From IMG/VR virus record IMGVR_UViG_3300035703_000021, positions 32,001-96,000 of that record: a stretch of DNA of 64,000 bases, one strand, 5' to 3'. The notes below the pieces were generated by a model. The model searched no databases and was not told the DNA's origin. It was given only the letters and a program-made list of their open reading frames with translations. Within the stretch, counting starts at the first letter, position 1, and each line of letters opens with the position of its first letter. Origin of the DNA: a virus. Of the stretch, positions 1 through 16,364 are shown piece after piece. The translations under genes were made by a program, and so were the position numbers.

Positions 1-1342
1 AGGCCAGGAACCCGAACCGGATGAAACACTCGAGGGAGTTCTTGTGGATCTGGATTCCCATGTAGGGGAGAAGGGACTCGGAGTAGAAGTGGACATCATC
101 GGCCTGGAGGCACTTACTCAGGAAGAAGTCGGTGCTGTCGCGAAGCACGCGAAGATAGAGCGACATCGGGTCAGTCTCGTATTTCTCACAGAGCCACTTA
201 ATGTGGGAACCTGGATGGACGTCGTGGCCCTCCTTGTCGCTGATCTCCTCCAGCTCGAAGAGCCGGTAGGTGGAGATGGGCGCCAAGCGGCTGATCGCCC
301 CGCTGTCGAGCGAGTAGGTGATCTCTGGTTTCCATTCGTTGCAGTTCGCCAAAATTACGGTATTGGCAACCACCTCAATAGCATCAACACCCTTCTGCTC
401 GACCTTCTCCGTACCGCCGGTGACCACGGACTTGAAGCTGTGCGCTTTCAGCATCCGCTCAAGGCTATCGAGAGTCAGGTCGTCGTTGTAGGCTAGGTGG
501 GATGTCACCACGCTTCCCTGATTGAAGCGGGAGCCGAAGTCGCCCATGGAGGAGACATCGTAACCGACGTACTTCATAGCGTTGAGGATGCCATTAAGCG
601 TCAGCGTCTTGCCGACTCCGGGCTCGCCGATCACCACCCCAGCTTTACGGAATCCGTGCTCGAGGACTTTGTGAGTGCCCGGGTGGACTGCGCCCGTCCG
701 GCCAACGCACGCCCGGCCGATGATCAGCTTCATCATCTGAGCCTCGTGGTGAGGGAAGATGCGGATGATGTTCTCAAATCCTAACTTTTGCAGCTCCTCC
801 GAGAACCACTCCTTCTCCGGAACGTAAGCGTAGGTTTCCCTCACGGCGTCCTTGCGACCCTGCATAGTCGCCGGAGAGTGGGCGATACCGAGCTGGTACT
901 GTCCACCTCCGAGCTTCTTGTGCCTCATGGCTTTGAGGTTCTCGACGCCTAGCACGTGGTCGGTGATCTCGCTGCTGCGACCGGATCGGTAGACGAAGAG
1001 CGGGGTCGCAAACTCCTGCTCGTCAGCGGAGAGCTCGTGGAGAACATCCTCGTCGAGGATTGTTTCCTGAGCGGTCTCTAGGCGGATCTCTGACGCGGGA
1101 ACGAGAAACTGGAACCAGTCGGGAAACTTCACCGACTTCGGAGCCATGGGGTCCTTGCCCGGATTATGCTCCTCGTAGAGGGAGTGGTAGCCGGTGAGTT
1201 TAGCGTCGTAGTTGAATCGGAGATAGTAGCCTCTGTTCTCGGCCCAGGCCAAGATCTTCTTGTACATCCGAGATGGGCCAATGGCGTCGGACGCGAGCGT
1301 ATCCTTCGCCGATGAGTGTCCTTGATTCTTCGATTCTGCCAT
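1..1342 (-). CDS. Superfamily-3 (D5-like) helicase, 3' end runs off the window
   Basis: Not in the ORF track; translated by hand from ATG at 1342 (MAESKNQG...). Walker A VVIGEPGVGKT, Walker B LAYNDD, motif C VILANCN and Arg-finger-like SGAISRL. Confidence 0.8.
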   Translation of the reverse strand, partial: MAESKNQGHSSAKDTLASDAIGPSRMYKKILAWAENRGYYLRFNYDAKLTGYHSLYEEHNPGKDPMAPKSVKFPDWFQFLVPASEIRLETAQETILDEDVLHELSADEQEFATPLFVYRSGRSSEITDHVLGVENLKAMRHKKLGGGQYQLGIAHSPATMQGRKDAVRETYAYVPEKEWFSEELQKLGFENIIRIFPHHEAQMMKLIIGRACVGRTGAVHPGTHKVLEHGFRKAGVVIGEPGVGKTLTLNGILNAMKYVGYDVSSMGDFGSRFNQGSVVTSHLAYNDDLTLDSLERMLKAHSFKSVVTGGTEKVEQKGVDAIEVVANTVILANCNEWKPEITYSLDSGAISRLAPISTYRLFELEEISDKEGHDVHPGSHIKWLCEKYETDPMSLYLRVLRDSTDFFLSKCLQADDVHFYSESLLPYMGIQIHKNSLECFIRFGFLA

Positions 1343-1346
1343 GCAA

Positions 1347-1373
1347 TAAAAAAGTCCCATGCTAGATGGGACT
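1347..1373 (-). terminator. Intrinsic terminator-like hairpin overlapping a -10 box
   Basis: Minus strand AGTCCCAT-CTAGC-ATGGGACT followed by a T-run; TATAAT (1374-1379) lies immediately upstream. Confidence 0.6.
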
Positions 1374-1399
1374 ATTATAGATCAGTTGAGGGGCCCGAG

Positions 1400-2674
1400 T
1401 CAAGAGCCTGTGACCAGTTGTGATAGTTGCTCCTTGATGGAGGTTCGGAGGTCCTTGAGGCCGCGGAGCAGGGCTCTCAGCTCCTTAACGCACTTCTTAT
1501 CGTCGGCCTCGCGACACTGCCGCAGGTTCTCCGTCTCCTCTTTTATCTTGGAGTGCGTCTCAGAATCCTTGAGAGCGAGGTCTTTGCACTTCTCAAAAAT
1601 CTCAATGTCGGAGACTTTCTCCATGCAAAGAGTCCTATTCCGGCCGGTGAGCTCGGGGTGGGAGTTCTCGCGTCTGGACTTAGAGGCTCTGGAGAAGAAA
1701 GAGGTCTTGTCCTCGTGCCATGTTGCAGGGATTTCCGGGAGGAAAAGTCCCTTTCGTAAGAGAAAGGTTCTTGCGGACAGCATGTGATCTGACCGGTTGG
1801 ATGGAGTTGTATTGTTAAGTACTTTGAGTAGGCGTTTGGTATCTTCTTCTGTAAAACGCCATGTAGTATCTTCGTCATAAAGATCAAAAAATCGTAGCGG
1901 AGTGCCAGGGTAGAGATTATCGCCGAGGTCACCGTACTCGACTTTGAAGTCGTAGCAGCCTCTGGCGGTGGTGATATGCATTCCCTCCTTGCGGAGATAG
2001 TAATCGCAGACCTCGCGTTCCGAGCGAAGCCTAGGCAACCAGGGGCCGGTGTTGGCCCAGATGATCTGATGCTCGTCGGAGACGAGGCCCTGCCAGTCAC
2101 CATCCAAAGTCCCGAGAAGGATCTGGCGCTTGGCGAGTTTGGAGTTCTTGCGAGCTTTGCGCTTGAGCCTGCACACGTGCCCGGCGATGTCATCCGCCTC
2201 AAAGAACTCCTTGGCGAAGTAGTGGAAGGTGGAGCCGGGGGAGTTGATGTACTTGTACCCCTCGTCCTGGATGAGGTCGAAGAACTCGGTCTTCTCACCC
2301 CGCCCGCCTTTGTACTCAGCCATGTCGAGCTTGTGGGCCTCGATATGCCGCCAGTACCCCTTGCCACTCACGGAGGCTTCGGAGAAGTCCGCTGGAAGTT
2401 TGCCCTTAAGGTCGTCTGCCACAAGCCCCACGAAGGGCATGGGGCTAAGCATATCCGGCCCTCGGTTGAGGCGATAGGCCCACATGGCCTTGATTATCTT
2501 GCGAAGCTCCTCCTCAGAGCCATTCGCCACGTCCACAGCCGCTTCCGCGTAATTATTGATAAAGTGCGCACAGACCTTGAAATCGATGACGTAGACCGGA
2601 CAATAAGGATCGAGGACGGGCTCAAATACATCTTCGAGTAGGGTGGCGGTGTGGTCGTATTCGGGTAGGGGCAT
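1400..2674 (-). CDS. 5'-3' exonuclease / flap endonuclease (T4 RNase H / Pol I N-terminal family)
   Basis: Acidic motifs VIDF, YKGGR, FEADDIAG, LDGDWQGL and GDLGDNLYPG in the canonical order. Confidence 0.8.
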   Translation of the reverse strand: MPLPEYDHTATLLEDVFEPVLDPYCPVYVIDFKVCAHFINNYAEAAVDVANGSEEELRKIIKAMWAYRLNRGPDMLSPMPFVGLVADDLKGKLPADFSEASVSGKGYWRHIEAHKLDMAEYKGGRGEKTEFFDLIQDEGYKYINSPGSTFHYFAKEFFEADDIAGHVCRLKRKARKNSKLAKRQILLGTLDGDWQGLVSDEHQIIWANTGPWLPRLRSEREVCDYYLRKEGMHITTARGCYDFKVEYGDLGDNLYPGTPLRFFDLYDEDTTWRFTEEDTKRLLKVLNNTTPSNRSDHMLSARTFLLRKGLFLPEIPATWHEDKTSFFSRASKSRRENSHPELTGRNRTLCMEKVSDIEIFEKCKDLALKDSETHSKIKEETENLRQCREADDKKCVKELRALLRGLKDLRTSIKEQLSQLVTGS

Positions 2675-3519
2675 CAGTTCGCTACTTCCATCTTCGTTGC
2701 CGGGTGGGAGACGTAGTCGATGAGCTCGAAGTCGGTCTCGGGATCGAGGTCGAAGATGGGCTTCTCGTTATTGATCCATACATCGCACTGGGCCATAGGT
2801 GAGTTGGTGATGATCGACTTGATGGCGAGTTCGTTCTGGGAGTAGATGTGGTTGTTGGCCGAGGCGAACATCACGAACCGGGGAACCAGGTTGGCGTCCT
2901 GAGCCATCTTGGTGACAAGAAGGCCGTAGCGGAACATATCCAACGGCACCCCCGTCGCCATGTCGTTACTCCGGGCATTGACCATCAGATCAAGATGAGC
3001 CCCATCGCTAGAAAAAGTGAGGTTAGGATGACAAGGAGGGCAGTGAAGAGAATCGTAAGCAGGATTAAAAGTCTGAAGCACCAGTTGGCGATTGGTCGGG
3101 TTGGTGCGGAGCTGCTCCCAGATCCACTTGAGTTGGTCGAATGGTTCGGCACGGAAGTTCTCCCACTGCATATTCTGCTCGGGGCAGACTTGAGGCCAGG
3201 CCCTCCAGCTCCGGCCATAAGCCCCGGCCAGGCGTCCTTCGGCGTCGGCGAGGAAGTCCCAGAAGTGCTTGGCGGGGCCTAGATTGGTTACCTGGTAGTC
3301 GCCATTGACATCCCACATGAACTCACGGAAGAGGTTACGGACGGGCATCTTGCGGAGGGTAAGGGCTGGGAAGCCGTTCCGCAGATCGACTTTGATGGTC
3401 TGGCCGAACATCTGCTTGTATCGCAGATTGTTCCGGCCTACAACCTCGGTGCCCTCATCGAGGATCTCTCTGGCGATTTTGATGTACTGGAGGTCGAAGG
3501 ACAGGCAGGGCTGTGGCAT
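2674..3519 (-). CDS. Thymidylate synthase-family enzyme with Asn-to-Asp specificity change; putative dCMP (hydroxy)methylase
   Basis: ThyA motifs FPALTLRK, YGRSWRAW, DQL, PPCH, RSND and HIY; GVPLD in place of GxPFN (Asp codon at 2938-2940). Confidence 0.8.
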   Translation of the reverse strand: MPQPCLSFDLQYIKIAREILDEGTEVVGRNNLRYKQMFGQTIKVDLRNGFPALTLRKMPVRNLFREFMWDVNGDYQVTNLGPAKHFWDFLADAEGRLAGAYGRSWRAWPQVCPEQNMQWENFRAEPFDQLKWIWEQLRTNPTNRQLVLQTFNPAYDSLHCPPCHPNLTFSSDGAHLDLMVNARSNDMATGVPLDMFRYGLLVTKMAQDANLVPRFVMFASANNHIYSQNELAIKSIITNSPMAQCDVWINNEKPIFDLDPETDFELIDYVSHPATKMEVAN

Positions 3520-3545
3520 GGCTCACTGGTATGGGTTATGAGACC

Positions 3546-3575
3546 ATTTTACCACAGCCGGGCCGGATTTGTCTA
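3546..3575 (-). promoter_or_regulatory. Sigma70-type promoter of the ThyA-like gene
   Basis: TAGACA-18 bp-TAAAAT with TG extension (TGGTAAAAT). Confidence 0.5.
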
Positions 3576-3812
3576 GGGTCCGAAATACTTCTCAACGAGG
3601 AGGCGCTGGAGCTTGACGAACTTGCGGAGGGGGTAGTTGTATTCCATGGCCCACTGGAGCAGGGACCGACTCCCCATCTCGATGAGTTCCATCTCCGGGT
3701 CCTCGGAGATCACTTCCTCCTTGGCGACGAAGAACTTCTCTCCGTCGTGGGCTACTACGAGCCAGGGCACGTCCTTATCAAACCGGACGGGCTTTGCGAT
3801 TCTTTCGATCAT
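3573..3812 (-). CDS. Hypothetical protein (79 aa)
   Basis: ATGA overlap with the upstream gene; phage-like codon usage. Confidence 0.65.
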   Translation of the reverse strand: MIERIAKPVRFDKDVPWLVVAHDGEKFFVAKEEVISEDPEMELIEMGSRSLLQWAMEYNYPLRKFVKLQRLLVEKYFGP

Positions 3813-4285
3813 TTGTTGTTAGATTTCTTGTGGGCTTCAATGATGTCCTCGGTGGATCGGGCTTTGGATAGAGCTTGGACTTGAGCCCGTGATAGTCCGC
3901 CGAGGTCTGTTTGTTTGTACCCGGGGCCTTTCGGCGTGGCTGAGGCACCAGGGACGCACGTTTTACCAGCACGTGTCGTTCCTGCCGGGCAGCGCCCCAG
4001 CGCTTTCCCCTTATAGAATACCATGGAATCGGCGTAATTGGCACCCCCGCCTTCGACATTGGAGGCAGATGAGGCTCTCTTAGCTTTAAGAATCTCCATG
4101 TAGTCTGCCTGGGAGAGTTTTGTTAACTTATCTCCAAAGAATAGATTTACATCCTCTGGTGACATCTTCTTGATGTAGAAGTAGTTTAACAGACTTTCGT
4201 GCTTTGACATCACGGACTTGGGATCTTTTACCCCAGAATCCTTCAAATACTGAAATATGGAGTTTTTCCAGTCTTTTATTCCCAT
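3809..4285 (-). CDS. Hypothetical protein with CxxG-x4-GxxCV motif
   Basis: Translationally coupled ORF; RCPAGTTRAGKTCVP motif shared with the upstream gene. Confidence 0.65.
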   Translation of the reverse strand: MGIKDWKNSIFQYLKDSGVKDPKSVMSKHESLLNYFYIKKMSPEDVNLFFGDKLTKLSQADYMEILKAKRASSASNVEGGGANYADSMVFYKGKALGRCPAGTTRAGKTCVPGASATPKGPGYKQTDLGGLSRAQVQALSKARSTEDIIEAHKKSNNK

Positions 4286-6450
4286 TAGAATTGACTCCTG
4301 AGTATGTTGATTTCGGCATCGGAAACATTCCTTCCGATGAATTGAGAAAGTTTTTCAACTCCAGCTTTAAAGATACTCTCTGCATCTTGATTAGATGCGC
4401 CGCCTATCTTAGATAGGTATCTGTTTCCTGCCACCGTTCCTGATAGCAAAGAGGCCGCTAAAGTATTTTTGATATCTGATATCGCGTTATTTATTTCATC
4501 GAAGGATTGCCCTTCTTTGAGTTTGGAGGATATTCCTCCCCAAAGCAGATTTTGCATTGGAGAAGACATGCCTTTTTCGCTTGGGGCTGGTGCGTTGGGG
4601 TGAGAAGTTCCAAAATACGATATTCCAAGAATCTTAAGAGCCTGTTTTTTAACAAATTCTTGCACTTCCGCCGAGGATGGATCCAAAGAAGTTGCATTTG
4701 CTTCTCGAAGATCATTATCAAGAACGTTTTTTGAGATCATTCCGATGTCCTTCCGCATATCTCCAGTCAAACTACCTCTTGAATTATTAAGAGCACCCTC
4801 ACTCAATTTTTTACCAGTGCCAGCTTGCGATAATGCCACCGAGGTTCCAAATTGAGACTTATACGCGGCGCTTTGAGCGTCATTGTATAAGCGTTTTTGT
4901 TCCTCTGGATTCTCGGAAAGCTGATTAAGCCTTTCCTTCTCTCCTAATGCTGATCTATATAACCACAGGAAATTATTATCGCTTAGATGGGTGTTCAACC
5001 CTCCTCGCGTAAAGACTCCATTATCAGGATGATCCCCACCACCCCTAGCTGACGGAAGTACGTGGTCCAACGTTAAAGTAAAAGGACCCATAATAGTTGG
5101 GTCTTGGGTGTATCCATCTATTCCTCCTTGAACAAGGTATTTTTTTAGCATACCTTTACCGCGGGTTGAGGTAATTTTGTCAGCGTAAACTGGTATTTTT
5201 TTGCCATCTTGGATTTCGTATCCGCCAAATATGTTTTTCCTAGGACTTCCAACCTTATCGAATCTGCCTTTAAGAGTGGGAGGAAGAAGCGGATAAATAA
5301 TGTCAACTATTTGATCCTGCTCTTCGGGGGTTAAATCTTTGAACGAATCTAGCGGAGATCCGAAGGTCTTTCTCTCGGATTCCTGCAGGTGCTCCTGCAT
5401 TACATCGGAGGATAGGTTTTCCGCCAACGCCGCTCTTTTCTTTTCCCTCTGGTTATAGGCGGAGAGTTTTTGTTCGTATTCTGCTTTAACAGCTTCTTTC
5501 TGTTCTTTGGGGAGCCCTTTCAAATTAGGTTTCTGCGGAGGATGCTCCGATAGATCTTCCTCCGTTAATCCAGCAGCTAATAGGGCTTTCTTAATGGGGC
5601 CATTTAGTACGGACTCTAGTTCACTGTAATTTCTAAACGCTCTCTGCTCCCCTTCTTCACTTGGATCTACCTGCGATACCGATCCATCTGAATTTAATTT
5701 GTATTCTAGGCTAAATTGTTTTACGTCCTGAGCGGTTTTGCCTTCTTTTACAGTATCTCCAGATATTCTTTTTCCGTCTCCGTCTACCCACAGAGACATG
5801 AATTCTAACACGCTAGTTGCACTATTTTTAAGTTTTGGATTACTGCCTAACTTTGATTCTACGTAGTTTCTAATGGTTGTTCTTTCTTTTCCTCTACCGA
5901 CCATTTGTGTGTCTATATACATAGACGGGTTACGATTACGATCTTTTAGAAAAGCTCCTCTCTGGGAGTGGGCTTGATTTAAAGTAGTAGATCCAGTTGC
6001 TTCTCCGCTGGGCTTTGGCCGCTTTTCTGATTTAGGTTCTGGTTTTGGTTTGGGTTGCTCTTCTTGCTTAGGTTGAGATTGCGTTTCTTCAGTTGCTCCT
6101 TTTCTATCGAGAGCCTTTGACATTCCCTCCTGGATCTGCGCCCCGGTTCTTTTTTGAGGAAGAGTTCTTACATTACCTTTTGGCTTAGGAGCCGTGCTAC
6201 TTTGAACGCACTGATCCCCTTGGGCATGGAATCCAGGATCGCATTTATGGACCATAGCTGCCTGCTTCCTGTTGCCATGAGCCGGCTGTTGCTTTAGTTG
6301 CCCAACAGCAAAGCTAACTGCCTCAGAAAACCCAACAACATCCCTACCCTCAAGAGCGGGCATCCTAGCCTCACCCTCAAACAGCTGTTCCGCTACCCAT
6401 TCAGTTTTATCCGCGATTCCCCAATCCTGAGGGGCATAATCCCCGAGCAT
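4285..6450 (-). CDS. Large low-GC protein with an HNH-like nuclease motif
   Basis: LTLDHVLPSARGGGDHPDNGVFTRGGLN; N-terminal KCDPGFHAQGDQCV; visibly AT-richer than its flanks. Confidence 0.65.
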   Translation of the reverse strand: MLGDYAPQDWGIADKTEWVAEQLFEGEARMPALEGRDVVGFSEAVSFAVGQLKQQPAHGNRKQAAMVHKCDPGFHAQGDQCVQSSTAPKPKGNVRTLPQKRTGAQIQEGMSKALDRKGATEETQSQPKQEEQPKPKPEPKSEKRPKPSGEATGSTTLNQAHSQRGAFLKDRNRNPSMYIDTQMVGRGKERTTIRNYVESKLGSNPKLKNSATSVLEFMSLWVDGDGKRISGDTVKEGKTAQDVKQFSLEYKLNSDGSVSQVDPSEEGEQRAFRNYSELESVLNGPIKKALLAAGLTEEDLSEHPPQKPNLKGLPKEQKEAVKAEYEQKLSAYNQREKKRAALAENLSSDVMQEHLQESERKTFGSPLDSFKDLTPEEQDQIVDIIYPLLPPTLKGRFDKVGSPRKNIFGGYEIQDGKKIPVYADKITSTRGKGMLKKYLVQGGIDGYTQDPTIMGPFTLTLDHVLPSARGGGDHPDNGVFTRGGLNTHLSDNNFLWLYRSALGEKERLNQLSENPEEQKRLYNDAQSAAYKSQFGTSVALSQAGTGKKLSEGALNNSRGSLTGDMRKDIGMISKNVLDNDLREANATSLDPSSAEVQEFVKKQALKILGISYFGTSHPNAPAPSEKGMSSPMQNLLWGGISSKLKEGQSFDEINNAISDIKNTLAASLLSGTVAGNRYLSKIGGASNQDAESIFKAGVEKLSQFIGRNVSDAEINILRSQF

Positions 6451-6473
6451 AATTCAAGCGCTATTTACTTAGT

Positions 6474-6501
6474 CTTTAAACCCGTGTCTTTCAGTCTAAA
6501 G
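6474..6501. promoter_or_regulatory. Divergent pair of putative phage promoter motifs
   Basis: GTTTAAAG on the minus strand (6474-6481) and GTCTAAAG on the plus strand (6494-6501), each about 23 nt from a start codon. Confidence 0.5.
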
Positions 6502-6523
6502 ACCTCCGTAAACCAATTCTACC

Positions 6524-7723
6524 ATGTCATCATACACCCACGGCCACATCATCCCCCTGGTAGGAGGGAGCGTGGTCGGCACGACCCTGGCCCTGGAGAA
6601 GGATCCGGAGTGGATCGCGTCCTGGAGCGACTCATTCGGCGCCAATGATCAGTACTGCCTGAAGTACTTCGACAAGACCCCCTTCCACAATCTCGATGAG
6701 GGGAACTACCCCACAAAGTACGTCGATATTGTTACGTCCCTGCCGCCCTGCGCCGGCCTCTCGATGGCCAATACCACTTCCGGCGAGAAGGTCAACAACC
6801 CACGTGGTTGCTCGGCGCCCAGCAACATGCACATGTACCACGCAGCTGAGTTCGCCATGTCCAAGATCAAGCCTAAGGCCATGATGGTGGAGAATGCGCC
6901 GGCCCTCTACTCGAAGATGGGAGAGGAGTTCGCGGAGCGGATCAACTCACTGGCCGCGGAGCACGACTACTCCATGAGCCTGGTGAAGACCACCTCGATC
7001 AATCACGGGGTGCCCCAGGAGCGTACTCGCTCGTTCTTCTTCCTGTGGCAGGGGGACAAAGTCCCGGTGCTCTCTCCTGTGAAGCGTGACTTCGAGCCCT
7101 TCCACAAGTTCCTGAAAGCTGGTGGATTCGCTAAATCCGAGCCGGTCAACTCCAAGGGAACACCTAGCGCCGATCCGCTGTGGCAATTTATCGAGGAGAA
7201 GTACGCCGGCTACACCAAGCAGGACATTCTCTCCAAGGTGGCCTCGAAGCGCATGACGTCAGTCTGGAACGTTATCTACGAGTCGGGTTGGTTGGAGGAG
7301 GCCGCGAGAGTGGTCAAGGATGAGAAGGCCAATCGCTGGCTCAACTACACACTTGAGAAGAAGCGCGCCGGCAAGAACATCATGGACGGTAGTATGAAAC
7401 TGGCTTGGTATAGAACGCAGAGTCTGATGTGGAAGTCACTTCCGTATCTTATGCATCCCTACGAGGATCGTTGGCTAACAGTGGCCGAGGGCCTCGCGCT
7501 GATGGGGTTCCCGAAGGAGTACGCCGAGAAGGTCTCTATTCCCACCAAGCACAGCAATGTTATTGCGCAGAACGTGCCCGCGTGCACAGCCCGCGACTGG
7601 ATCCTGGAGGTGGAGGAGGCGCTCAAGGGCAATCGCGAGTGGGTGGAAAGGCCTAATGGCGCGATCCTGAGACAGAACAATACCACCTCCACTAAGCCCA
7701 TGGAGCCGATCTGGGCGCTCTGA
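6524..7723 (+). CDS. DNA cytosine-C5 methyltransferase homologue with atypical motif I
   Basis: Motif IV PPCAGLS, VI ENAP, VIII PQERTRSFF, IX RWLTVAEGLALMGFP, X IAQNVP; motif I reads IIPLVGGS. Confidence 0.85.
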   Translation: MSSYTHGHIIPLVGGSVVGTTLALEKDPEWIASWSDSFGANDQYCLKYFDKTPFHNLDEGNYPTKYVDIVTSLPPCAGLSMANTTSGEKVNNPRGCSAPSNMHMYHAAEFAMSKIKPKAMMVENAPALYSKMGEEFAERINSLAAEHDYSMSLVKTTSINHGVPQERTRSFFFLWQGDKVPVLSPVKRDFEPFHKFLKAGGFAKSEPVNSKGTPSADPLWQFIEEKYAGYTKQDILSKVASKRMTSVWNVIYESGWLEEAARVVKDEKANRWLNYTLEKKRAGKNIMDGSMKLAWYRTQSLMWKSLPYLMHPYEDRWLTVAEGLALMGFPKEYAEKVSIPTKHSNVIAQNVPACTARDWILEVEEALKGNREWVERPNGAILRQNNTTSTKPMEPIWAL

Positions 7724-7727
7724 GCGC

Positions 7728-8294
7728 TCAGTACACCAACTTATTCTTGATCTGCATCATCCCACCGAGAAGCGCCTGAGCTTCGCTCCCGTCCGGCTCG
7801 TGGAAGATGATCTCCGCTGTACTGGCCACGAACTCCTCTGGGGTCTGTGGCCTTTCCTCGTATGTTTTCTCGTAGAGCTCGATGGCCTGGTCCACTGTGG
7901 CTTCCACTCGTGCCTCGATGACCTCGTCGGTCATAGTGAAGGTTTTGTGAAGCGCCTCCGACTGTACCCACTTGCGCTGAACGAAGTCCACAAGAGCGAG
8001 AAGCTCCTTGCGGGTAAGAGTCTCGTCCTCCACGGCCTTCAGCAGCATGGAGATGATGAGCCGGGTCTGGGACTCGGAGTAGTTCCTGTGTGCAGTATTC
8101 CTCAGCCAGAAGATGTCTAACTCGTCGAAGAGGATCTTAAGGTTCTTAGCGCCGATCTTCTTTATCGCCTTTCTGTTCACGAAGTCGAGGATGAGGTCGA
8201 GCGCCGGTTCGAGCAGGCCCCACAGCACAGCGGCCTGGATGATGATTCCCCTCTCCGAGGGTCTCTTCTTCCCAAACGAAAAGTAAAAATCCAT
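7728..8294 (-). CDS. Hypothetical protein (188 aa)
   Basis: Long ORF with genome-typical codon usage; no recognised motif. Confidence 0.65.
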   Translation of the reverse strand: MDFYFSFGKKRPSERGIIIQAAVLWGLLEPALDLILDFVNRKAIKKIGAKNLKILFDELDIFWLRNTAHRNYSESQTRLIISMLLKAVEDETLTRKELLALVDFVQRKWVQSEALHKTFTMTDEVIEARVEATVDQAIELYEKTYEERPQTPEEFVASTAEIIFHEPDGSEAQALLGGMMQIKNKLVY

Positions 8295-8303
8295 CTCTGA
8301 TAC

Positions 8304-8332
8304 AAAAAAAAAGAGGGAGTCGATGCTCCCTC
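8304..8332 (-). terminator. Intrinsic terminator after the riboswitch-linked peptide
   Basis: GAGGGAGC-ATCG-ACTCCCTC followed by T9. Confidence 0.75.
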
Positions 8333-8338
8333 CGATCT

Positions 8339-8458
8339 TTAGACCACTACTGCGGCTTCTGATTTTCTAACTAACTGGGCCAGAGAGGCCGCTTGTCTGC
8401 GGTTCTCTTTCTCTTTCTGCTCCTTGATGAGCTGGAGGACGTTGATTGTTTTTGACAT
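8339..8458 (-). CDS. 39-aa peptide downstream of the glutamine riboswitch (MSKTINVLQLIKEQKEKENRRQAASLAQLVRKSEAAVVV)
   Basis: Hand-translated; GGAG RBS upstream and terminator downstream; below the ORF-track length cutoff. Confidence 0.7.
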   Translation of the reverse strand: MSKTINVLQLIKEQKEKENRRQAASLAQLVRKSEAAVVV

Positions 8459-8490
8459 TAGGTTGCTCCGTTACTTTTTAGGGTATTGGT

Positions 8491-8591
8491 GCGTTCCTTC
8501 AGTCGGCTTTTGCGGCCGTGGTGAGCGGCTGAACGATCCGTTCCGAGTCGGCTTACTTCCGTCGGAGAGGACTAACTCCCCGATGAACGAT
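8491..8591 (-). ncRNA. Tandem glnA-type (glutamine) riboswitch
   Basis: Two units: ATCGTTCA-[TCGGGGAG/CTCTCCGA stem]-CGGAAGTAAG...GGAACG and ATCGTTCA-[GCCG/CGGC stem]-CGCAAAAG...GAAGGAACGC. CGTTC/GAACG P1 pairing and GGAAGTAAG/GAAG elements match the glnA motif as I recall it. Confidence 0.75.
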
Positions 8592-8602
8592 CTATAGGTC
8601 CT

Positions 8603-9100
8603 TTAACCGAATGTGTACTGAAGCCACTCGGGAGAGCCTGAGTCAATAAGATTGAGCAGGAATCTGTTAGTGGGAACAAAAGGCTTTCTAGCGAGCTTCA
8701 TTCCGGTCTGCTCGAGAAGGGTGTCTCCCTTCTTCGTGTTGCACGTTGAGCAGGCTACCACCATATTCTCCCAGGTATCCTGACCTCCTCGGCTTCTGGG
8801 GATCACATGGTCGATGGTCAGGCGCCTTGTCGATCCGCAGTACTGGCACTTGTGCCCGTCTCGCTTGTATATAAGAGTCCGGGATGGTTTGACGGAATTG
8901 ATCTTGGTAAAAGGAATCCTTATGTACTCCACGAGCCGGATGACTTTTGCCGACACCACCGCCGCCTTCTCCTTGAGAAGCAGGATGATTGCTCTCTTCC
9001 AACTCGTGATATGAAGGGGCTCGTAGGACGCGTTGAGGACTAATACTTGTGTATTAGGCCTGATCGCTTTTACGTTTTCCGGTACCATCGCAGACTCCAC
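8603..9100 (-). CDS. HNH endonuclease (McrA-like, cyanobacterial type)
   Basis: VLVLNASYEPL N-terminus; RDGHKCQYCG, TIDHVIPRSRGG, WENMVVACSTCNTKK. Confidence 0.9.
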   Translation of the reverse strand: MESAMVPENVKAIRPNTQVLVLNASYEPLHITSWKRAIILLLKEKAAVVSAKVIRLVEYIRIPFTKINSVKPSRTLIYKRDGHKCQYCGSTRRLTIDHVIPRSRGGQDTWENMVVACSTCNTKKGDTLLEQTGMKLARKPFVPTNRFLLNLIDSGSPEWLQYTFG

Positions 9101-9236
9101 ATTCTATTACTTCGTTAGGTAGTATACGCCCGTCAGGCGTGTTTTTCTCGATAATGAGGAATCCCCTGCCAGCGCAATTCCTACAAGACGATCTGTCAAT
9201 TTTGTCGATGAGACGCTGGCGAGGGATGGGGACCAT
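9054..9236 (-). CDS. Small DnaJ-type zinc-finger protein (60 aa)
   Basis: Two CxxCxGxG motifs (CRNCAGRG, CGVCDGTG); ATG at 9236 just after the upstream stop codon. Confidence 0.6.
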   Translation of the reverse strand: MVPIPRQRLIDKIDRSSCRNCAGRGFLIIEKNTPDGRILPNEVIECGVCDGTGKRKSDQA

Positions 9237-9240
9237 TGGT

Positions 9241-9738
9241 TTAGAACGATGCTGATTCGCAGTTGCCCTGGAGCTCCTCTGCTGGGTTCGCGGTGACGGG
9301 AGCATCACCGTTCACATTGTGATCCGGCCGGACCTGATTGTAGGCTTGTTTCTCCGCGGCGACGCGAGCGAACTCCTCGCCCGTCACCCCACCATAGGCG
9401 AGGACGGCACGATGAAATAGCAGTACGTCATACATCTCAGCGATGAATTCCTTGCGAAGTTCCGCGTTATCCATGAAACTACGCTCGCCGTTCTTCCAGC
9501 TCCGACGAGGGACGTAGACGCGGGCTTCGATCATCTCCTCTCCCATGTGACCGAAGTGCTCGATCATTTTCTGGTAGCGGAAGGAGAGTCCGTCGTCGTG
9601 GCGGGGAAGGCCAAGCTCGACCATCTTGTCGATGGCGACTAGATCATCGGGACCCATTTCGCCGACCTTGGACGCGTACTTCTGCTGTGCACCGAAGCCA
9701 TCATTGATGAATTGCACGTAATCGAAGGAAGCAGTCAT
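9241..9738 (-). CDS. All-alpha dNTP pyrophosphatase (dimeric dUTPase / T4 gp56 dCTPase-like)
   Basis: EEMIE...RRSWK...EFIAEMYDVLLF...EEF...KQAYNQVR, matching the EExxE / WK / ExxD / KxxxNxxR layout. Confidence 0.7.
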   Translation of the reverse strand: MTASFDYVQFINDGFGAQQKYASKVGEMGPDDLVAIDKMVELGLPRHDDGLSFRYQKMIEHFGHMGEEMIEARVYVPRRSWKNGERSFMDNAELRKEFIAEMYDVLLFHRAVLAYGGVTGEEFARVAAEKQAYNQVRPDHNVNGDAPVTANPAEELQGNCESASF

Positions 9739-9767
9739 AGAGCTCTTAGTGAGTAAAGTTTGAATCC

Positions 9768-9796
9768 ATCATATCACAGATGGGGGAGTATGTCAA
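9768..9796 (-). promoter_or_regulatory. Near-consensus sigma70 promoter of the dNTP pyrophosphatase
   Basis: TTGACA-17 bp-TATGAT with TG extension. Confidence 0.7.
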
Positions 9797-11706
9797 CCCT
9801 CGCAGGCCACGCATTCCCCGTAGGTCTTCTCCTTAGATCCGAAGTGCTCCGATAGGTGCTTGTACCCGCCGATGTACCGGTCATTAAGCCAGATCTGGGG
9901 CACCGTTTTCCAGTGCCATTCGGAGTCGGGAACGTCGGCTCTGTCAGTCTCGTTGATCGTCCAGCCCTGGCTCTTGAGCAGGGATTTAGCCATGGAGCAG
10001 TAGGGGCACTCCTGCTTGGTGATGATCCTGGCGATCTTCTGCTGTCCCAACGGTCTCTTCTTAACAAGCAGAGACGAGCTCTTCAGGTAATAGAGGGACT
10101 TAAGCCCAGCTTTCCAGGCGCTCAGGTGGAGCTTGAAGAGGTACTCGGGTGTGGATTCTGGGTCGACGAAGAGGTTGATGGATTGGCCCTGGCAGACGTA
10201 CTTCTGGCGGTCAGCGGCTTGCCTGATAATCTCGAACTGGTCGATCTCGCGGGCGGTCTTGAATACCTCCTTGGTATGAGGATCAAGAAACTCGAGGTGC
10301 TGAACCGACCCTCTGAACTCTAGAATCGCCTCCCAGGTCTCCTCGGTGTTGCGGCCGATCCGCTCTAGGTGCTCCACCAGGTACCTGTTCTTGCGAACAA
10401 AGGTCCCCTTGGCCTGCCTAGCAACGTAGTAGTTAGCGTCGATAGGCTCGATGCCTTCGCTCCCCGCTCCGCAGATGGCGGAGTTGGACTTGGTTGGGGC
10501 GATGGCCATGAGATGGGTGTGGCGAAGGCCGGTACCCTGGCACCACTCGGGCTCGCCGTAAGCGGCAGCCATCTCACGCGAGGCCTTCTGCGCCTTCTCC
10601 TTGATGAACCTGTGCATGTCGGTGTTGAGCTGGCGAGCCTCGTCGGAGGCGAATGGGAGCCCCTTCGACTGGTAGAGGGCGTGAAGGCCCATGGTACCCA
10701 GGCCGAGTGCCCTGGACTTGCGGGCGAAACGTACGGCTCTGCCTAGGGAGGTGATGCGATCGGCCTTGTGGCAGAACTCCTCGACAACCGCGTCGAGAAG
10801 GTACACCGCTAGCTCAGGGGCAGTCTTGCCAGTTGCAGGACCTTTCCAGTCCTTCCACTCCTCCCAGCGGGAGAGATTGAGCGATGAGAGAACGCAGACG
10901 AAGGTGTGGTTCTCGTCGGTGTGAAGGAAGATCTCGGAGCAGAGATTGCTTAGCTTAACGCTAAGCCCGCGCTGAAGGTAGCACTCTGGATTGGCTTTGT
11001 TGGCGTTGTCGGTGAAGATGATGTAGGGAGACCCTGACACCAGGCGGGCCTTAAGCACCTCGCCGAACAACTTCTGCTTCTCCCGGTCTCCGGCTAGCAG
11101 CTCCTCCACCCACTCGTTGGAGACGGTGATGGCTATGTTGCTGTCGATGAAGTCACGAGGGTCACCCTGCGAGTGGTCCTTGGAGCGAAGCACTTCAGGC
11201 AGGTCCGGGTGGTCGATAGGGAGATATAGGGCAAAACTGCCCCGCCTCACCCCACCCTGGGAGACTACCGCGGCGCACTGATCGAACTGCCTCATCCAGG
11301 GCACCACTCCGGTGCTCTTGCCCCCGCTCGAGATGGGAGCCCCGGCCGGGCGGATGTCCCCGAAGTAAGTCCCCACTCCGCCGCCATGCTGCGAGAGCGC
11401 AGCCGACTCCTTGAGGTGGGAGTAGATGGAAGGAACGGAGTCGGAGATGTGGTTCGAGTAGCAGCTGATTGGCAGGCCGCGTGACGTGCCGAAGTTGCTG
11501 GCCACCGGCGTCGCTAAACCGAGAAACCCGCGCCACAGCATCTCGAAGATGTCCCCGGAGAGTTCGGGGTAGTTGAGTAGCTTGGCGGCCTGATTGGCCA
11601 CCCGCTCGTACATACCCCTAGGCGTCTCGCCCTGATAGAGATAACCCCTTGAGAGGGTGTCGATGGCTTCTTTTGACATCCACGAGGGGACTTGGGGTTC
11701 GGACAT
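9793..11706 (-). CDS. nrdA: Class I ribonucleotide reductase alpha subunit with fused glutaredoxin domain
   Basis: PISC, SNLCSEI, AIAPT, QGQSINL and SLYY motifs; then CPYC...TVPQIW (glutaredoxin) and a terminal CVACEG. Confidence 0.95.
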   Translation of the reverse strand: MSEPQVPSWMSKEAIDTLSRGYLYQGETPRGMYERVANQAAKLLNYPELSGDIFEMLWRGFLGLATPVASNFGTSRGLPISCYSNHISDSVPSIYSHLKESAALSQHGGGVGTYFGDIRPAGAPISSGGKSTGVVPWMRQFDQCAAVVSQGGVRRGSFALYLPIDHPDLPEVLRSKDHSQGDPRDFIDSNIAITVSNEWVEELLAGDREKQKLFGEVLKARLVSGSPYIIFTDNANKANPECYLQRGLSVKLSNLCSEIFLHTDENHTFVCVLSSLNLSRWEEWKDWKGPATGKTAPELAVYLLDAVVEEFCHKADRITSLGRAVRFARKSRALGLGTMGLHALYQSKGLPFASDEARQLNTDMHRFIKEKAQKASREMAAAYGEPEWCQGTGLRHTHLMAIAPTKSNSAICGAGSEGIEPIDANYYVARQAKGTFVRKNRYLVEHLERIGRNTEETWEAILEFRGSVQHLEFLDPHTKEVFKTAREIDQFEIIRQAADRQKYVCQGQSINLFVDPESTPEYLFKLHLSAWKAGLKSLYYLKSSSLLVKKRPLGQQKIARIITKQECPYCSMAKSLLKSQGWTINETDRADVPDSEWHWKTVPQIWLNDRYIGGYKHLSEHFGSKEKTYGECVACEG

Positions 11707-11727
11707 AGCGATTTGATGGGGTTCTAT

Positions 11728-11736
11728 ATTATAACA
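11728..11736 (-). promoter_or_regulatory. Extended -10 promoter of nrdA
   Basis: TGTTATAAT about 22 nt upstream of the ATG. Confidence 0.6.
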
Positions 11737-11752
11737 AGGTTAAGGCGACATA

Positions 11753-11789
11753 GTCGCTAAGTTAGTAAATAGTTTACTAACCGAGCGAC
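11753..11789. repeat. Intergenic inverted repeat
   Basis: GTCGCT-AA-GTTAGTAAA-TAG-TTTACTAAC-CG-AGCGAC. Confidence 0.7.
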
Positions 11790-11796
11790 CACGCTA

Positions 11797-12198
11797 CTAT
11801 TTTTTCTTTTTGATCAGCCCGTCATCGTGGGCCTGCTGTACGTTCTCTGAGCGCGTACCCCACTCCAGATTGGAGATGGCGTTGTTGGTTCCGTCGTTGT
11901 CCTTGTGGAGGATGACGATGTGCTCGCCCTTGGGCTTGGGAGGGCCGAATAGCTCCATCACCATCTGGTGCAGGGGCGGCTCCTCGCGTTTGCCATTCCA
12001 AGTGAGGTTGACGCGCTGGTGTTTGCGATCGTCGTCGCGGGGCTTGCGGTTCTCGCTGTCGCCTTTACGACGCACTTTGCCACTACTACTCACCTCGTAG
12101 GGAGAGTCCTTCCACTGCTTCCAGGTTTCCTTGGAGTCGGAAAAGCTCCGGCCACCCTGATCCCTTCCTTTGACCTTCCAGCCCTCGGGTACGTTCAT
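11797..12198 (-). CDS. NUMOD4-HNH homing-endonuclease-like protein between nrdB and nrdA
   Basis: YEVSSSGKVR, LHQMVMELF, ILHKDNDGTNNAISNLEWGTRSEN; start is ATG 12198 or GTG 12213. Confidence 0.85.
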   Translation of the reverse strand: MNVPEGWKVKGRDQGGRSFSDSKETWKQWKDSPYEVSSSGKVRRKGDSENRKPRDDDRKHQRVNLTWNGKREEPPLHQMVMELFGPPKPKGEHIVILHKDNDGTNNAISNLEWGTRSENVQQAHDDGLIKKKK

Positions 12199-12200
12199 GC

Positions 12201-12362
12201 TCAGATCGTCCACGCGTCGGTGATCTTCTTCTTATCCTGAAGAGCTCTCTTGTGAGCTTCGGCTAGAAGCCTATCGGCCTTGGGGTCCGTGATCAGGTAC
12301 GATGTCCCGTAGGTCTGGGACATGTACTTTTTGTCAGTGTCTGGGATCGGGTGAATTGCCAT
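12201..12362 (-). CDS. Small hypothetical protein (53 aa, MAIHPIPDTDKKYMSQTYG...)
   Basis: Hand-translated; fills the gap within the operon. Confidence 0.6.
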   Translation of the reverse strand: MAIHPIPDTDKKYMSQTYGTSYLITDPKADRLLAEAHKRALQDKKKITDAWTI

Positions 12363-12501
12363 TGGAGAGTTGTTTTTCGCGATGCTTGTTAATCAGGTAG
12401 AAGTCGTGGGCTGTTTCTCCATCCTCAAAGATCTTGGGGCCGTGGGAAGTCTCCACAAGCCACCTTCCGTTTTGAATGCTGATCGGTTTTGAAATGGACA
12501 C
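12334..12501 (-). CDS. Small hypothetical protein (55 aa)
   Basis: GTG start preceded by AGGAGG RBS; hand-translated. Confidence 0.55.
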   Translation of the reverse strand: MSISKPISIQNGRWLVETSHGPKIFEDGETAHDFYLINKHREKQLSNGNSPDPRH

Positions 12502-12516
12502 GGGTCCTCCTTGCGA

Positions 12517-13527
12517 TTAAGCGTAGGAGAGGCAAGACTCTAAATCCAAAGTTGAAAGATCCACACTCATATAATCCTGAGTGGGCTTGGCTACGTAATT
12601 GTCACCAGATTTGCTTTGAGCGAAGAAATCAGAGCTACTTGCCCCTTTGATCATAGGGTCAAACCAAGCGCTGATGGACTTTGCCCGTGAGAGCTCCTCG
12701 GTGGACAGATGGAAGATCTGCTGAAGCCCGAGCGTGATAAGCCGTTCATTAGCGCGGTTGGTTATGTAAGCTTTCAACTCGTCAGCGTCAATCGAGCTAA
12801 TATATGCAGAGTTAAAAATGTGGTCAATAAAAGCGAACTCCTTGCCCACCACAAGGCGGAAGCCCTCGTAGATCGCTTGCTCCTCGGCCTCAGTAAGCCC
12901 CGTCTCCTCGACAAGGCGGCGGAAAAGCCCGCACCCAGCTTCCGAGTGAGTCTGCTCGTCGATTGACGACCACGAGATGATCTGCGCGAGGCCTTTGTAA
13001 CGTCCATCTCTGTTAAAGCTTAGTAGTACTGCGAAGGAGCTGAATAGCGACACGCCCTCTCCGGCGCCCGAGAACACCGCGAGGGAGACTTTGTCCTGGT
13101 ACTTCTGGAAGAAGGTATCGATCTTGGAGCAGGCGACAGGGTCATTGATGAACTCCTCGTACTCCTTCAGGCCGAGGACATCATTCAGGTAGGAGTAAGC
13201 CGCGGCGTGGATCGTCTCGAAGAACGAGAAGGCGCGGGCCATGGCTTGGATCTCGGGCTTGGGGAAGATCCTGCAGACCTCATCCGCCCAGTAACAACCA
13301 ATCCCCAGCTCAGCGCTTACAAAGCCCTTTAGAATCCCGGCTATAACCGCTCTTTCGTCCGGTGTTGAGTTGAATTGCCAGTCGCGAAGATCTCCCTCCA
13401 TGGCAACCTCCTGGTGGCGCCATACGCTGGCCACGGTGCGCTCGTAGTAATCGTAGAACTCCGGAAAGTCGAATCCGTCGTCCTTCTTGAAGATCATTCT
13501 GTTGTGCTCGAGAATGCTGTTGCTCAT
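12517..13527 (-). CDS. nrdB: Ribonucleotide reductase beta subunit
   Basis: W...E, ETIHAAAY, EGVSLFSSF, DEQTH di-iron ligands; SDFF near the C-terminus. Confidence 0.95.
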   Translation of the reverse strand: MSNSILEHNRMIFKKDDGFDFPEFYDYYERTVASVWRHQEVAMEGDLRDWQFNSTPDERAVIAGILKGFVSAELGIGCYWADEVCRIFPKPEIQAMARAFSFFETIHAAAYSYLNDVLGLKEYEEFINDPVACSKIDTFFQKYQDKVSLAVFSGAGEGVSLFSSFAVLLSFNRDGRYKGLAQIISWSSIDEQTHSEAGCGLFRRLVEETGLTEAEEQAIYEGFRLVVGKEFAFIDHIFNSAYISSIDADELKAYITNRANERLITLGLQQIFHLSTEELSRAKSISAWFDPMIKGASSSDFFAQSKSGDNYVAKPTQDYMSVDLSTLDLESCLSYA

Positions 13528-14261: not shown

Positions 14262-14324
14262 GGGAGCATCGGGCCTAGTACTCTCATTCTATCATGAGCT
14301 GGTCTTTACGGCCGAAGGCCGTGG

Positions 14325-14879: not shown

Positions 14880-14912
14880 GGGTGTACGCGGTCTGTATGA
14901 GTCTTTAAACCC

Positions 14913-14944
14913 AAAAGAAAAAGCCCCGAGGAATCCTCGGAGCT
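14913..14944 (-). terminator. Intrinsic terminator
   Basis: AGCTCCGAGG-ATT-CCTCGGGGCT followed by TTTTCTTTT. Confidence 0.75.
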
Positions 14945-14984
14945 CCTTCGTTACTGATTCGAAGTTGGATCAGAAGTCTAGACC

Positions 14985-15923: not shown

Positions 15924-16025
15924 TTGAAAAGTTCTCTTAGTAGGTGTCTCTTTGGAGCGAAAGATCTCTCTTTGACTCTCTGTATATTATACCACACAAG
16001 CTCCCACGTGTGGGGTGGTGGTATG

Positions 16026-16346: not shown

Positions 16347-16364
16347 GGATCTGTACGGGCCTAT

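Follow-up and report, generated by a model that had tools for sequence, protein, structure and literature searches.

Phage homologs of thymidylate synthase (ThyA) that carry Asp at the position of Escherichia coli Asn177 and make the 5-methyl, 5-hydroxymethyl, or 5-hydroxy derivative of deoxycytidine monophosphate (dCMP) are well known and have been mined at scale, according to the accessible portions of three reports (PMC8670742, PMC13326640, bioRxiv 10.1101/2024.12.05.627091). The N177D substitution switches ThyA to dCMP (Liu & Santi 1992 and Hardy & Nalivaika 1992, as cited in excerpts of PMC8670742 and PMC13326640), and the same portions of all three reports routinely use this rule to call the products of phage ThyA homologs. 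Here, we examined a ThyA-like gene in a 64,000-nucleotide stretch of viral DNA (hereafter, the window), which represents bases 32001–96000 of the 138,862-bp IMG/VR virus record IMGVR_UViG_3300035703_000021 (estimated completeness, 86%). By protein similarity, the virus is a TIM5-like cyanophage and a relative of Aurunvirus; the available text of PMC10087341 describes TIM5-like cyanophages as a widespread ocean lineage infecting Synechococcus. On balance, we lean toward a reading in which the ThyA-like enzyme is a dCMP C5 transferase with a hydroxymethyl product, the modified cytosine enters phage DNA, and, in TIM5-like phages, it is then glucosylated.

Residues beyond position 177 have also been tied to the product formed. 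In the relevant sections of PMC13326640, D169N marks the 5-hydroxy-dCMP synthases, and position 143 correlates with product, Leu being associated with methyl and Asp/Glu with hydroxymethyl. The hydroxymethylase signature has been defined as Asp/Glu three residues before the catalytic Cys (Cys-3) plus Ser/Thr at Tyr-2; D145N abolishes the activity of the T4 dCMP hydroxymethylase (dCH, gp42), and Trp83 and Leu143 of E. coli ThyA control solvent access (PMC6400193). The MetaGPA study, in the part of PMC8670742 that treats this enzyme family, names the His147 position as one of two that differ between modified and unmodified contigs.

Residue signature of the ThyA-like protein

The gene and its diagnostic codons lie at the following positions of the window:

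2674–3519, minus strand: ThyA-fold enzyme of 281 residues, a predicted dCMP C5 one-carbon transferase (PF00303, alignment to E. coli ThyA, identity to cyanophage "ThyA")
3028–3045, minus strand: HCPPCH, comprising the catalytic Cys163 (= C146), His164 (= H147), and Cys160 (= Leu143) (alignments)
2938–2940, minus strand: codon of Asp194, equivalent to E. coli ThyA Asn177, the pyrimidine-specificity determinant (alignments)

A first-pass annotation of this DNA had described a canonical ThyA scaffold bearing the Asp associated with dCMP specificity, and both halves of that description held. The protein matched the Pfam family Thymidylat_synt (PF00303) over its full length (residues 11–280; 3e-55; 187.7 bits against a cutoff of 24.3) as well as the thymidylate synthase family phrog_160 (3.6e-63), and phmmer matched it to 120 ThyA sequences of solved structure at E ≤ 0.01 (lowest E value, 1.4e-35). 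Its score exceeded the cutoff of the NCBIfam thymidylate synthase model TIGR03284 (137.9 versus 108.35 bits) and fell below those of the remaining seven equivalog models that NCBIfam has for thymidylate synthase. The motifs AYGRSWRAW and NNHIY accompany HCPPCH, and the C-terminal tail has the length found in ThyA. With the ThyA of the K-12 record as the E. coli reference for MAFFT alignment, and with residue positions given in E. coli numbering, R21, E58, W80, Y94, R126, C146, H147, R166, S167, D169, H207, and Y209 are kept; the changes are N177D, Q165A, L143C, W83L, F176L, D205N, and R127Q. The stretch RSNDMATGVPLD (2938–2973, minus strand) pairs with E. coli RSCDVFLGLPFN, placing its last Asp, Asp194, on Asn177 whether aligned by phmmer to solved chains of E. 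coli ThyA or by MAFFT. T4 gp42 has an Asp at the equivalent position, as the annotation had stated; the residue is Asp179. In canonical ThyA, Gln165 orients Asn177 in the selection of deoxyuridine monophosphate (dUMP). Both residues are replaced here, by Ala182 and Asp194, respectively, as are Leu143 (by Cys160) and Trp83 (by Leu90). Position 169 retains its Asp (Asp186), and Tyr-2 is Gly99, within the motif LAGAYGRSW.

The "ThyA" proteins of S-TIM5, S-TIM54, S-TIM61, and S-TIM66 (genus Aurunvirus; hosts, marine Synechococcus) are 80.5–81.6% identical to the window protein, and the next-best phage matches after these TIM5-like proteins are only 33% identical. To follow the signature more broadly, we aligned the 114 homologs of at least 240 residues among the 120 listed (39–95% identity). 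D177, D169, C146, H147, L83, L176, and N205 were present in all 114, such that the Asp, whose occurrence in homologs the annotation had proposed to confirm, persists down to 39% identity. Position 143 was Cys in 108 sequences, Thr in 4, and Ile in 2; position 165 was Ala in 103, Gly in 8, Ser in 2, and Cys in 1, and never Gln. All of the changes from E. coli ThyA listed above are fixed or nearly so across the clade. Asp177 is likewise found in the window protein, S-TIM61, and every one of 17 IMG/VR relatives.

An exhaustive search of 1.84 billion cluster representatives (50% identity) gave a similar picture: the 15 best full-length matches all carry Asp177 and 14 of them Asn205, with canonical Asn177/Leu143/Trp83/Gln165/Asp205 enzymes not turning up until about rank 18 (E about 1e-34, about 32% identity). 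The rank order of these representatives, on which we base the placement of the clade relative to ordinary ThyA, points to a distinct subfamily branching next to ordinary ThyA. By BLASTP, the window protein falls outside the T4 gp42 group and shows no special closeness to the Xp12 dCMP methylase. Within the Asp177/Asn205 clade, one sub-branch (P0344, P0346, and P0347) keeps Trp83 and has Ile143 and Trp176; a member of this sub-branch is 447 residues long with its ThyA domain at 175–441, hence an N-terminal extension or fusion.

Comparison with the described enzymes confirms a further point of the annotation, that the protein is closer to ordinary ThyA than to gp42: ThyA sequences from the PDB matched at 1e-35 to 1e-32, versus 9e-6 with 20% identity for T4 gp42 (BLASTP). 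Canonical ThyA (E. coli, EC 2.1.1.45) is the best overall sequence match and has the same length and C-terminus, but the window clade departs from it in having Asp177, a residue other than Gln at 165, and neither Leu143 nor Trp83. With gp42, the window enzyme shares the ThyA fold, Asp at the N177 position, a (V)N-x-RSND strand, Asn at 164 and 168, and the loss of the bulky residues at 83 and 143. The two differ at Cys-3 (Cys versus Asp in T4) and at Tyr-2 (Gly versus Ser in the T4 sequence Ser94-x-Tyr96), and the window enzyme keeps His147 and the C-terminal tail. The Xp12 dCMP methyltransferase, which supplies the 5-methylcytosine (5mC) that replaces cytosine in that phage, also has the ThyA fold, Asp177, Asp169, and a comparable length with a C-terminal tail; it is 27% identical (BLASTP, 8e-22) and carries Phe83, Pro147, Leu165, and Tyr176 where the window enzyme has Leu83, His147, Ala165, and Leu176. 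The 5-hydroxy-dCMP synthases RB69 gp48 and DLP3 gp80 are, in the available text of PMC13326640, phage ThyA homologs with Asp177 that feed glycosylated cytosine, although their diagnostic D169N is absent from the window clade. Given that Asp169 is retained in 114 of 114 homologs, we rejected a 5-hydroxy-dCMP synthase assignment.

Kinase linkage, thymidylate supply, and a glucosyltransferase of relatives

The weightiest evidence that the ThyA-like enzyme shares a pathway with another enzyme comes from linkage to a second gene of the window:

39006–39593, minus strand: putative nucleoside or deoxynucleoside monophosphate (dNMP) kinase of the thymidylate kinase (TMPK) fold, 195 residues, with the P-loop GADRVGKST; candidate kinase for modified dCMP (AlphaFold2 (AF2) model and Foldseek)

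The annotation had called this gene a dNMP kinase, and the predicted structure agrees at the level of fold. The AF2 model (predicted local distance difference test (pLDDT), 94.7) matched 126 PDB chains at E ≤ 1e-3 in Foldseek, with thymidylate kinases as the best matches (1.2e-5; probability, 1.0; template modeling (TM) score, 0.5–0.6, the best being 0.59). At the sequence level membership is marginal: Pfam, PHROG, and NCBIfam gave no significant family match (AAA_28, at 6.6e-4, was below its cutoff), and a profile of the kinase matched Plasmodium falciparum TMPK at an E value of 0.007. The GADRVGKST P-loop and a CDR motif are invariant in the 32-sequence kinase family. A protein database entry starts the kinase at residue 6, read as Met; the true start may be this second Met, in which case the promoter-like site described below would lie farther from the gene.

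Beyond the TIM5-like phages, a profile-based search identified a second virus lineage of 19 IMG/VR loci (L034–L052), in which a ThyA-like gene with the same signature is 37–43% identical to that of the window. A kinase homolog lies directly upstream of the ThyA-like gene in all 16 loci with upstream DNA, the other 3 starting at a contig edge. These kinase homologs are 25–30% identical to the window kinase and match it over nearly their full length (E values of 1e-10 to 1e-20). At locus L039 (5716–10831; record G023), the gene for a Pol-gamma-like family A polymerase (PF18136, 5.7e-58) comes first, followed by that for the kinase and then by the ThyA-like gene. Linkage of kinase and ThyA-like gene across such distant lineages argues that the two serve the same pathway. 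The second-lineage records are an estimated 4–69% complete; the largest, G023, spans 150 kb with direct terminal repeats, and another, G028, is classed as a provirus. A Mu-type portal gene follows the polymerase–kinase–ThyA-like row in this lineage, and a weak HhH-GPD glycosylase-like open reading frame (ORF; 3.9e-5, below cutoff) lies near the L039 cluster.

The genome of the window virus encodes an independent source of deoxythymidine monophosphate (dTMP). A search for a second ThyA or ThyX, as the annotation had recommended, located a ThyX gene (2e-44; G000:C1:10197-10799) and no second PF00303 gene in the 138.9-kb record. A dCMP deaminase is also encoded (2.7e-24; G000:C1:117591-117908), about 83 kb from the ThyA-like gene; the corresponding S-TIM5 protein was reportedly crystallized as a dCMP deaminase. 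The trio of ThyX, deaminase, and ThyA-like enzyme recurs in S-TIM61 and in G023. With ThyX and dCMP deaminase present, the ThyA-like enzyme is not needed for dTMP. Dihydrofolate reductase (DHFR) was not found in any of the five records of the TIM5-like family by a search that was positive in 10 of 14 control genomes. Since a methylase would produce dihydrofolate, this absence mildly favors a reaction that releases tetrahydrofolate. Xp12 is laid out differently, with its ThyA homolog beside a deaminase and DHFR. There, the deaminase route spares the phage a second thymidylate synthase, according to the accessible text of bioRxiv 10.1101/2024.12.05.627091; the window virus has ThyX, and its deaminase lies at a distance.

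A T4-type DNA alpha-glucosyltransferase (alpha-GT) is encoded by the relatives of the window virus. The "DNA alpha-GT" of S-TIM61 matched the Pfam family AGT (PF11440; 2.7e-9; 37 bits against a cutoff of 25) and T4 a-gt (24% identity over 86% of its length, E value 1e-11), and a homolog is present in all five TIM5-like isolate records. Across the phage collection, 650 records matched, comprising the 5 TIM5-like records, Bacillus phage G, and a remainder that is mostly enterobacterial by organism name (including Escherichia, 343; Klebsiella, 134; and Shigella, 62), with T4 and its relatives prominent among the matches listed. The T4 enzyme acts on DNA, according to its annotation. Among the 17 IMG/VR relatives, the homolog was found in two: G010, the only 100% complete record, and G005, a 73% complete record with a ThyA-like gene about 95% identical to that of the window; the 15 relatives without a match are an estimated 7–84% complete. 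The first-pass suggestion to look for glycosyltransferases elsewhere in the genome was thus borne out in the relatives, whereas no alpha-GT was found in the virus's own 138.9-kb contig. Nothing can be read from that absence, since the contig stops short of the syntenic region: of 15 marker proteins from S-TIM61, just one, the DNA polymerase, was found on it (at 130.5–133.1 kb). By the spacing in G005, alpha-GT would be expected near 142 kb, shortly past the 138.9-kb end. The G005 homolog (L029, G005:C1:111247-112521; open frame of 430 residues) has one TAG inside the matched stretch, which may be the gene-end stop or a break.

Because a DNA glucosyltransferase needs a hydroxyl on the base, and the Asp177 ThyA-like protein is the sole candidate source of one, alpha-GT tips our estimate toward 5-hydroxymethyl-dCMP in the TIM5-like lineage. 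We also considered a postreplicative route to hydroxymethylcytosine, in which a C5 methyltransferase, a TET oxygenase, and a glucosyltransferase would act in turn on DNA; a Tet/JBP search, run without a positive control and so a weak negative, gave no match in any of the five records, and we set this route aside.

Proposed pathway and competing explanations

Two further genes of the window bear on how the pathway would operate and on how far cytosine would be replaced:

9241–9738, minus strand: all-helical protein of 165 residues, candidate dCTPase (acidic motifs, AF2 model), directly downstream of the presumed nrdA
6524–7723, plus strand: C5 cytosine DNA methyltransferase (PF00145, 1e-18; phrog_116, 3.2e-27; TIGR00675, 1.6e-12, below cutoff)

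As we envisage it, the ThyA fold would be re-aimed from dUMP to dCMP, keeping C5 one-carbon transfer from methylene-tetrahydrofolate and reading the base with Asp in place of Asn. The residues expected to carry the chemistry are kept (the catalytic Cys, Glu58, Tyr94, Arg21/126/166, Ser167, and Asp169), as are His207 and Tyr209, which would serve the deoxyribose. In the opening and weakest step, the candidate MazG-type pyrophosphatase (9241–9738) would convert deoxycytidine triphosphate (dCTP) to dCMP. The ThyA-like enzyme would turn dCMP into a C5-modified dCMP, the TMPK-fold kinase (39006–39593) would phosphorylate it, a host nucleoside diphosphate (NDP) kinase would finish the triphosphate, and the phage Pol-gamma-like DNA polymerase would incorporate the modified nucleotide. 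Meanwhile, two enzymes whose genes lie at other places in the genome, ThyX and the dCMP deaminase, would provide dTMP. The last step, in TIM5-like phages, would be glucosylation of 5-hydroxymethylcytosine on DNA by the T4-type alpha-GT.

The scheme would amount to T4 logic built from unrelated or distant parts. The T4 pathway partners are the dCTPase gp56, the dNMP kinase gp1, the cd deaminase, td/frd, and alpha- and beta-glucosyltransferases; the td gene is interrupted by an intron. Both systems have a thymidylate synthase apart from the modifying enzyme, as well as a dCMP deaminase and a kinase, and the relatives of the window virus add an alpha-GT homolog. The window virus differs in having ThyX in place of ThyA/td, a kinase that resembles thymidylate kinases, and no DHFR that we could find, and its polymerase is a Pol-gamma-like family A enzyme, not one of family B.

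From the residue pattern we infer that the substrate is probably dCMP. The clade has lost both residues that shield methylating ThyA, Leu143 and Trp83, a loss that fits attack by water, since both are linked to solvent exclusion in E. coli ThyA. Work by Fritz et al. 2002, cited for the solvent-access residues, reportedly concerns Trp80 and Leu143. Judged on its residues and its genomic company, the enzyme more plausibly makes 5-hydroxymethyl-dCMP than any other product, but only by a modest degree of belief. The lack of a T4-type Asp/Glu at Cys-3 makes 5-methyl-dCMP the main rival product, one that we regard as possible yet somewhat unlikely. We dropped a product call from the serine pattern at Tyr-2 and Tyr-1: many members of the wider clade have Ser at Tyr-1 rather than Tyr-2, and Ser/Thr at Tyr-2 discriminates poorly because the Xp12 methylase also has Ser there.

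The candidate pyrophosphatase belongs to a family of 387 sequences at E ≤ 1e-3, from which 27 of the 120 listed were aligned. EExxE (residues 67–71) and ExxxExxD (97–104) are invariant in all 27, and the tail reads K-x3-N-x2-R-x-D. The AF2 model is an all-helical bundle (pLDDT, 87.8). Foldseek gave no match at E ≤ 1e-3 (best, 0.23), although its list is headed by iMazG, the MazG-like dUTPase DR2231, and the mammalian dCTPase DCTPP1 (E values of 0.2–1.5) among unrelated helical bundles, and a language-model look-up, which we treat as a lead only, points to MazG-type clusters. Similarity to T4 gp56 is weak (BLASTP E value, 0.29; hhalign probability, 5%, with the motifs in the same register), and a profile of the family compared with PDB sequences returned nothing relevant, the one match being to a sigma factor at chance level (E value, 0.36). 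By location, G023 has a 71% identical homolog about 1 kb away from its dCMP deaminase gene, and homologs sit 4–7 kb from the ThyA-like gene at loci L044 and L048. The protein is probably an all-alpha (MazG-type) nucleoside triphosphate (NTP) pyrophosphohydrolase, with dCTP as a candidate substrate. We regard the first-pass label of a gp56/dimeric-dUTPase-like pyrophosphatase as suggestive only.

Several observations weigh against the hydroxymethylation reading. The T4-type hydroxymethylase signature is absent, Cys160 occupying the Cys-3 position in place of Asp/Glu and Gly that of Ser/Thr at Tyr-2; His147 is kept, whereas T4 gp42 has Thr and the Xp12 enzyme Pro at this position; and the C-terminal tail retains its ThyA length. 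The dCTPase assignment is weak: Pfam, PHROG, and NCBIfam gave no match to 9241–9738, and PF04447 was touched by 1 of the 27 family members, at 0.063. A PF11440 search of the 150-kb second-lineage record, in which two positive controls matched, returned no match, indicating that glucosylation is not universal in the enzyme clade. A literature search found no biochemical or DNA-composition datum for any TIM5-like phage. Moreover, the C5 methyltransferase argues against complete cytosine substitution because fully 5-substituted cytosine offers it no target. This gene is apparently intact, with the catalytic motifs PPC, ENA, QxRxR, and QNVP, lies 3 kb from the ThyA-like gene, and recurs at 70–99% identity in 18 of 20 TIM5-like loci; flanking DNA is short in the two without it. 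Perhaps substitution is only partial, or the methyltransferase has other DNA as its target or a different role. The first-pass interpretation as a whole, which combined modification and phosphorylation of dCMP with dCTP depletion and genome-wide replacement, is supported in its dCMP substrate and pathway logic (residues, ThyX, deaminase, kinase linkage), while its dCTP depletion hangs on weak similarity and its genome-wide replacement is hard to square with the conserved C5 methyltransferase.

Many of these observations would be accommodated by a pathway of the Xp12 type, in which the enzyme makes 5-methyl-dCMP, 5mC replaces cytosine, and the alpha-GT homolog of the relatives acts on something else. 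The window enzyme shares Asp177 with the Xp12 methyltransferase and resembles it more than it resembles gp42, has no acidic residue at Cys-3, and keeps His147 and a ThyA-like tail; alpha-GT went undetected in the second lineage; and, in the available text of bioRxiv 10.1101/2024.12.05.627091, five of seven tested virome ThyA homologs with Asp177 made 5-methyl-dCMP. Such systems, as far as the available descriptions extend, nevertheless combine a deaminase in cis with DHFR and lack a second thymidylate synthase, whereas here the deaminase is remote, ThyX is present, and DHFR is missing from all five records. Leu143 and Trp83 are both lost, and the T4-type alpha-GT found in all complete TIM5-like genomes needs a hydroxyl acceptor that the Tet/JBP search, lacking a positive control, did not otherwise account for. 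We consider the Xp12-type explanation doubtful, if the most credible of the rivals. Less probable still is that dCMP is modified but cytosine is not replaced wholesale, either through partial substitution or through pool metabolism (deamination to dTMP or 5-hydroxymethyl-dUMP), with the C5 methyltransferase giving site-specific protection. The conserved and apparently functional methyltransferase beside the gene, the unproven candidate dCTPase, and the dCMP deaminase all suit this view, and the accessible part of the same preprint (bioRxiv 10.1101/2024.12.05.627091) describes virome deaminases that act on C5-modified cytosine nucleotides. Even so, dTMP is already covered by ThyX, the dedicated kinase and the polymerase–kinase–ThyA-like cluster point to incorporation into DNA, and T4 alpha-GT acts on DNA; for these reasons we find this alternative improbable. 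That the gene encodes an ordinary thymidylate synthase (dUMP to dTMP) tolerating Asp177 and redundant with ThyX is very unlikely. The full-length, high-scoring ThyA match, the score above the TIGR03284 cutoff, the retention of most catalytic residues, and the annotation as ThyA or thymidylate synthase in all isolate records speak for it. Set against these are an Asp177 that is invariant down to 39% identity and covaries with positions 83, 143, 165, 176, and 205, where canonical enzymes have Asn, Gln, Leu, and Trp at the key sites; scores under the cutoffs of the seven other NCBIfam models; ThyX in the same genome and in the second lineage; and linkage to a dedicated kinase.

We advance one bolder proposal with little confidence: the Cys143/Leu83/Asn205/Asp177 clade could be a third, independently evolved solution to dCMP C5 modification that falls outside the Leu143 versus Asp/Glu143 rule, achieving hydroxymethylation without an acidic water-activating residue or forming a different C5 adduct. 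The clade's enzyme, its dedicated TMPK-like kinase, and the Pol-gamma-like polymerase would then make up a portable "modified-cytosine replication module" common to at least two lineages of marine and aquatic phages. Were this true, TIM5-like phages would be the first cyanophages with (glucosyl-)hydroxymethylcytosine DNA. Since position 143 fits none of the three published classes, the clade offers a test of the residue rules used for metagenomic ThyA product calls.

Three aspects appear to be new: a subfamily whose Cys143/Leu83/Asn205 signature lies outside the published product classes; its occurrence in cyanophages of a widespread lineage, whose records label the gene simply as ThyA; and its conserved companions, namely a TMPK-like kinase, a Pol-gamma-like polymerase, ThyX, a deaminase, and a MazG-like protein. 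In a search of main texts that did not extend to the 2012 S-TIM5 genome paper, we found no statement tying TIM5-like ThyA to cytosine modification. The available main text of the 2022 TIM5-like genome paper has alpha-GT only in a figure legend, and thymidylate, ThyA, and ThyX were not found in it. If TIM5-like DNA does carry modified and possibly glucosylated cytosine, their resistance to host restriction and CRISPR would call for a new explanation, sequencing and enzymatic methods sensitive to modified cytosine could be biased against these phages, and cyanophages with a family A polymerase would join those known to hypermodify cytosine.

Promoter-like sites, gene order, and composition

The annotation had assigned each of the three pathway genes its own sigma70-type promoter. 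A TG-extended site indeed precedes each, and all three are consensus matches only:

3546–3575, minus strand: TAGACA-18-TAAAAT, TG-extended sigma70-like promoter match, about 27 bp upstream of the ThyA-like start
9768–9796, minus strand: TTGACA-17-TATGAT, TG-extended sigma70-like promoter match upstream of 9241–9738
39603–39632, minus strand: TTGACC-18-TATAAT, TG-extended sigma70-like promoter match upstream of the kinase

The sites lie 10–30 bp upstream of their genes. The whole window holds eight sites with at least 10 of 12 matches, of which only these three are TG-extended. Between positions 2000 and 12000, four promoter-like sites were counted against a shuffled expectation of 5.5, that is, no enrichment; because the count is at or below expectation, placement rather than number is the point. 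This placement suggests, from sequence matches, that the three genes may share early expression by host RNA polymerase.

The surrounding genes follow the order of S-TIM61, in which NrdB, an HNH endonuclease, NrdA, a small hypothetical protein, a DNA methylase, a structural protein, ThyA, and a flap endonuclease succeed one another. The corresponding features of the window are as follows:

1400–2674, minus strand: flap-endonuclease-like replication gene (phrog_26716, 2.2e-97; annotated as flap endonuclease in S-TIM61)
9793–11706, minus strand: presumed nrdA (synteny and length relative to the S-TIM61 annotation)
11797–12213, minus strand: HNH endonuclease between the presumed nrdA and nrdB (PHROG match)
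12517–13527, minus strand: presumed nrdB (synteny and length relative to the S-TIM61 annotation)

The flap-endonuclease-like gene lies directly downstream of the ThyA-like gene, with a one-base overlap. At the DNA level, positions 1–20000 of the window matched the phage collection solely at 8530–8563, a 33–34-bp stretch that recurs at 100% identity in an unannotated intergenic stretch of Synechococcus phages DSL-LC02 and DSL-LC03. The G+C content of the window is about 50–59%, compared with 40.5% for S-TIM5 in the accessible table of a review, which places the window virus in a much G+C-richer branch of the TIM5-like phages. The bin at 4001–6000 dips to 42% G+C and covers a 721-residue ORF (4285–6450) with an HNH-like motif; its sole match is phrog_3561 (function not known), and the syntenic S-TIM61 gene is annotated as a virion structural protein. 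Two HNH genes are scattered among the presumed nrd genes and the candidate pyrophosphatase, at 8603–9100 and 11797–12213, both on the minus strand (PF01844, 3e-17; phrog_59, 2.4e-28). S-TIM61 carries HNH genes at similar places, and these genes look like homing-endonuclease traffic within the nucleotide-metabolism module.

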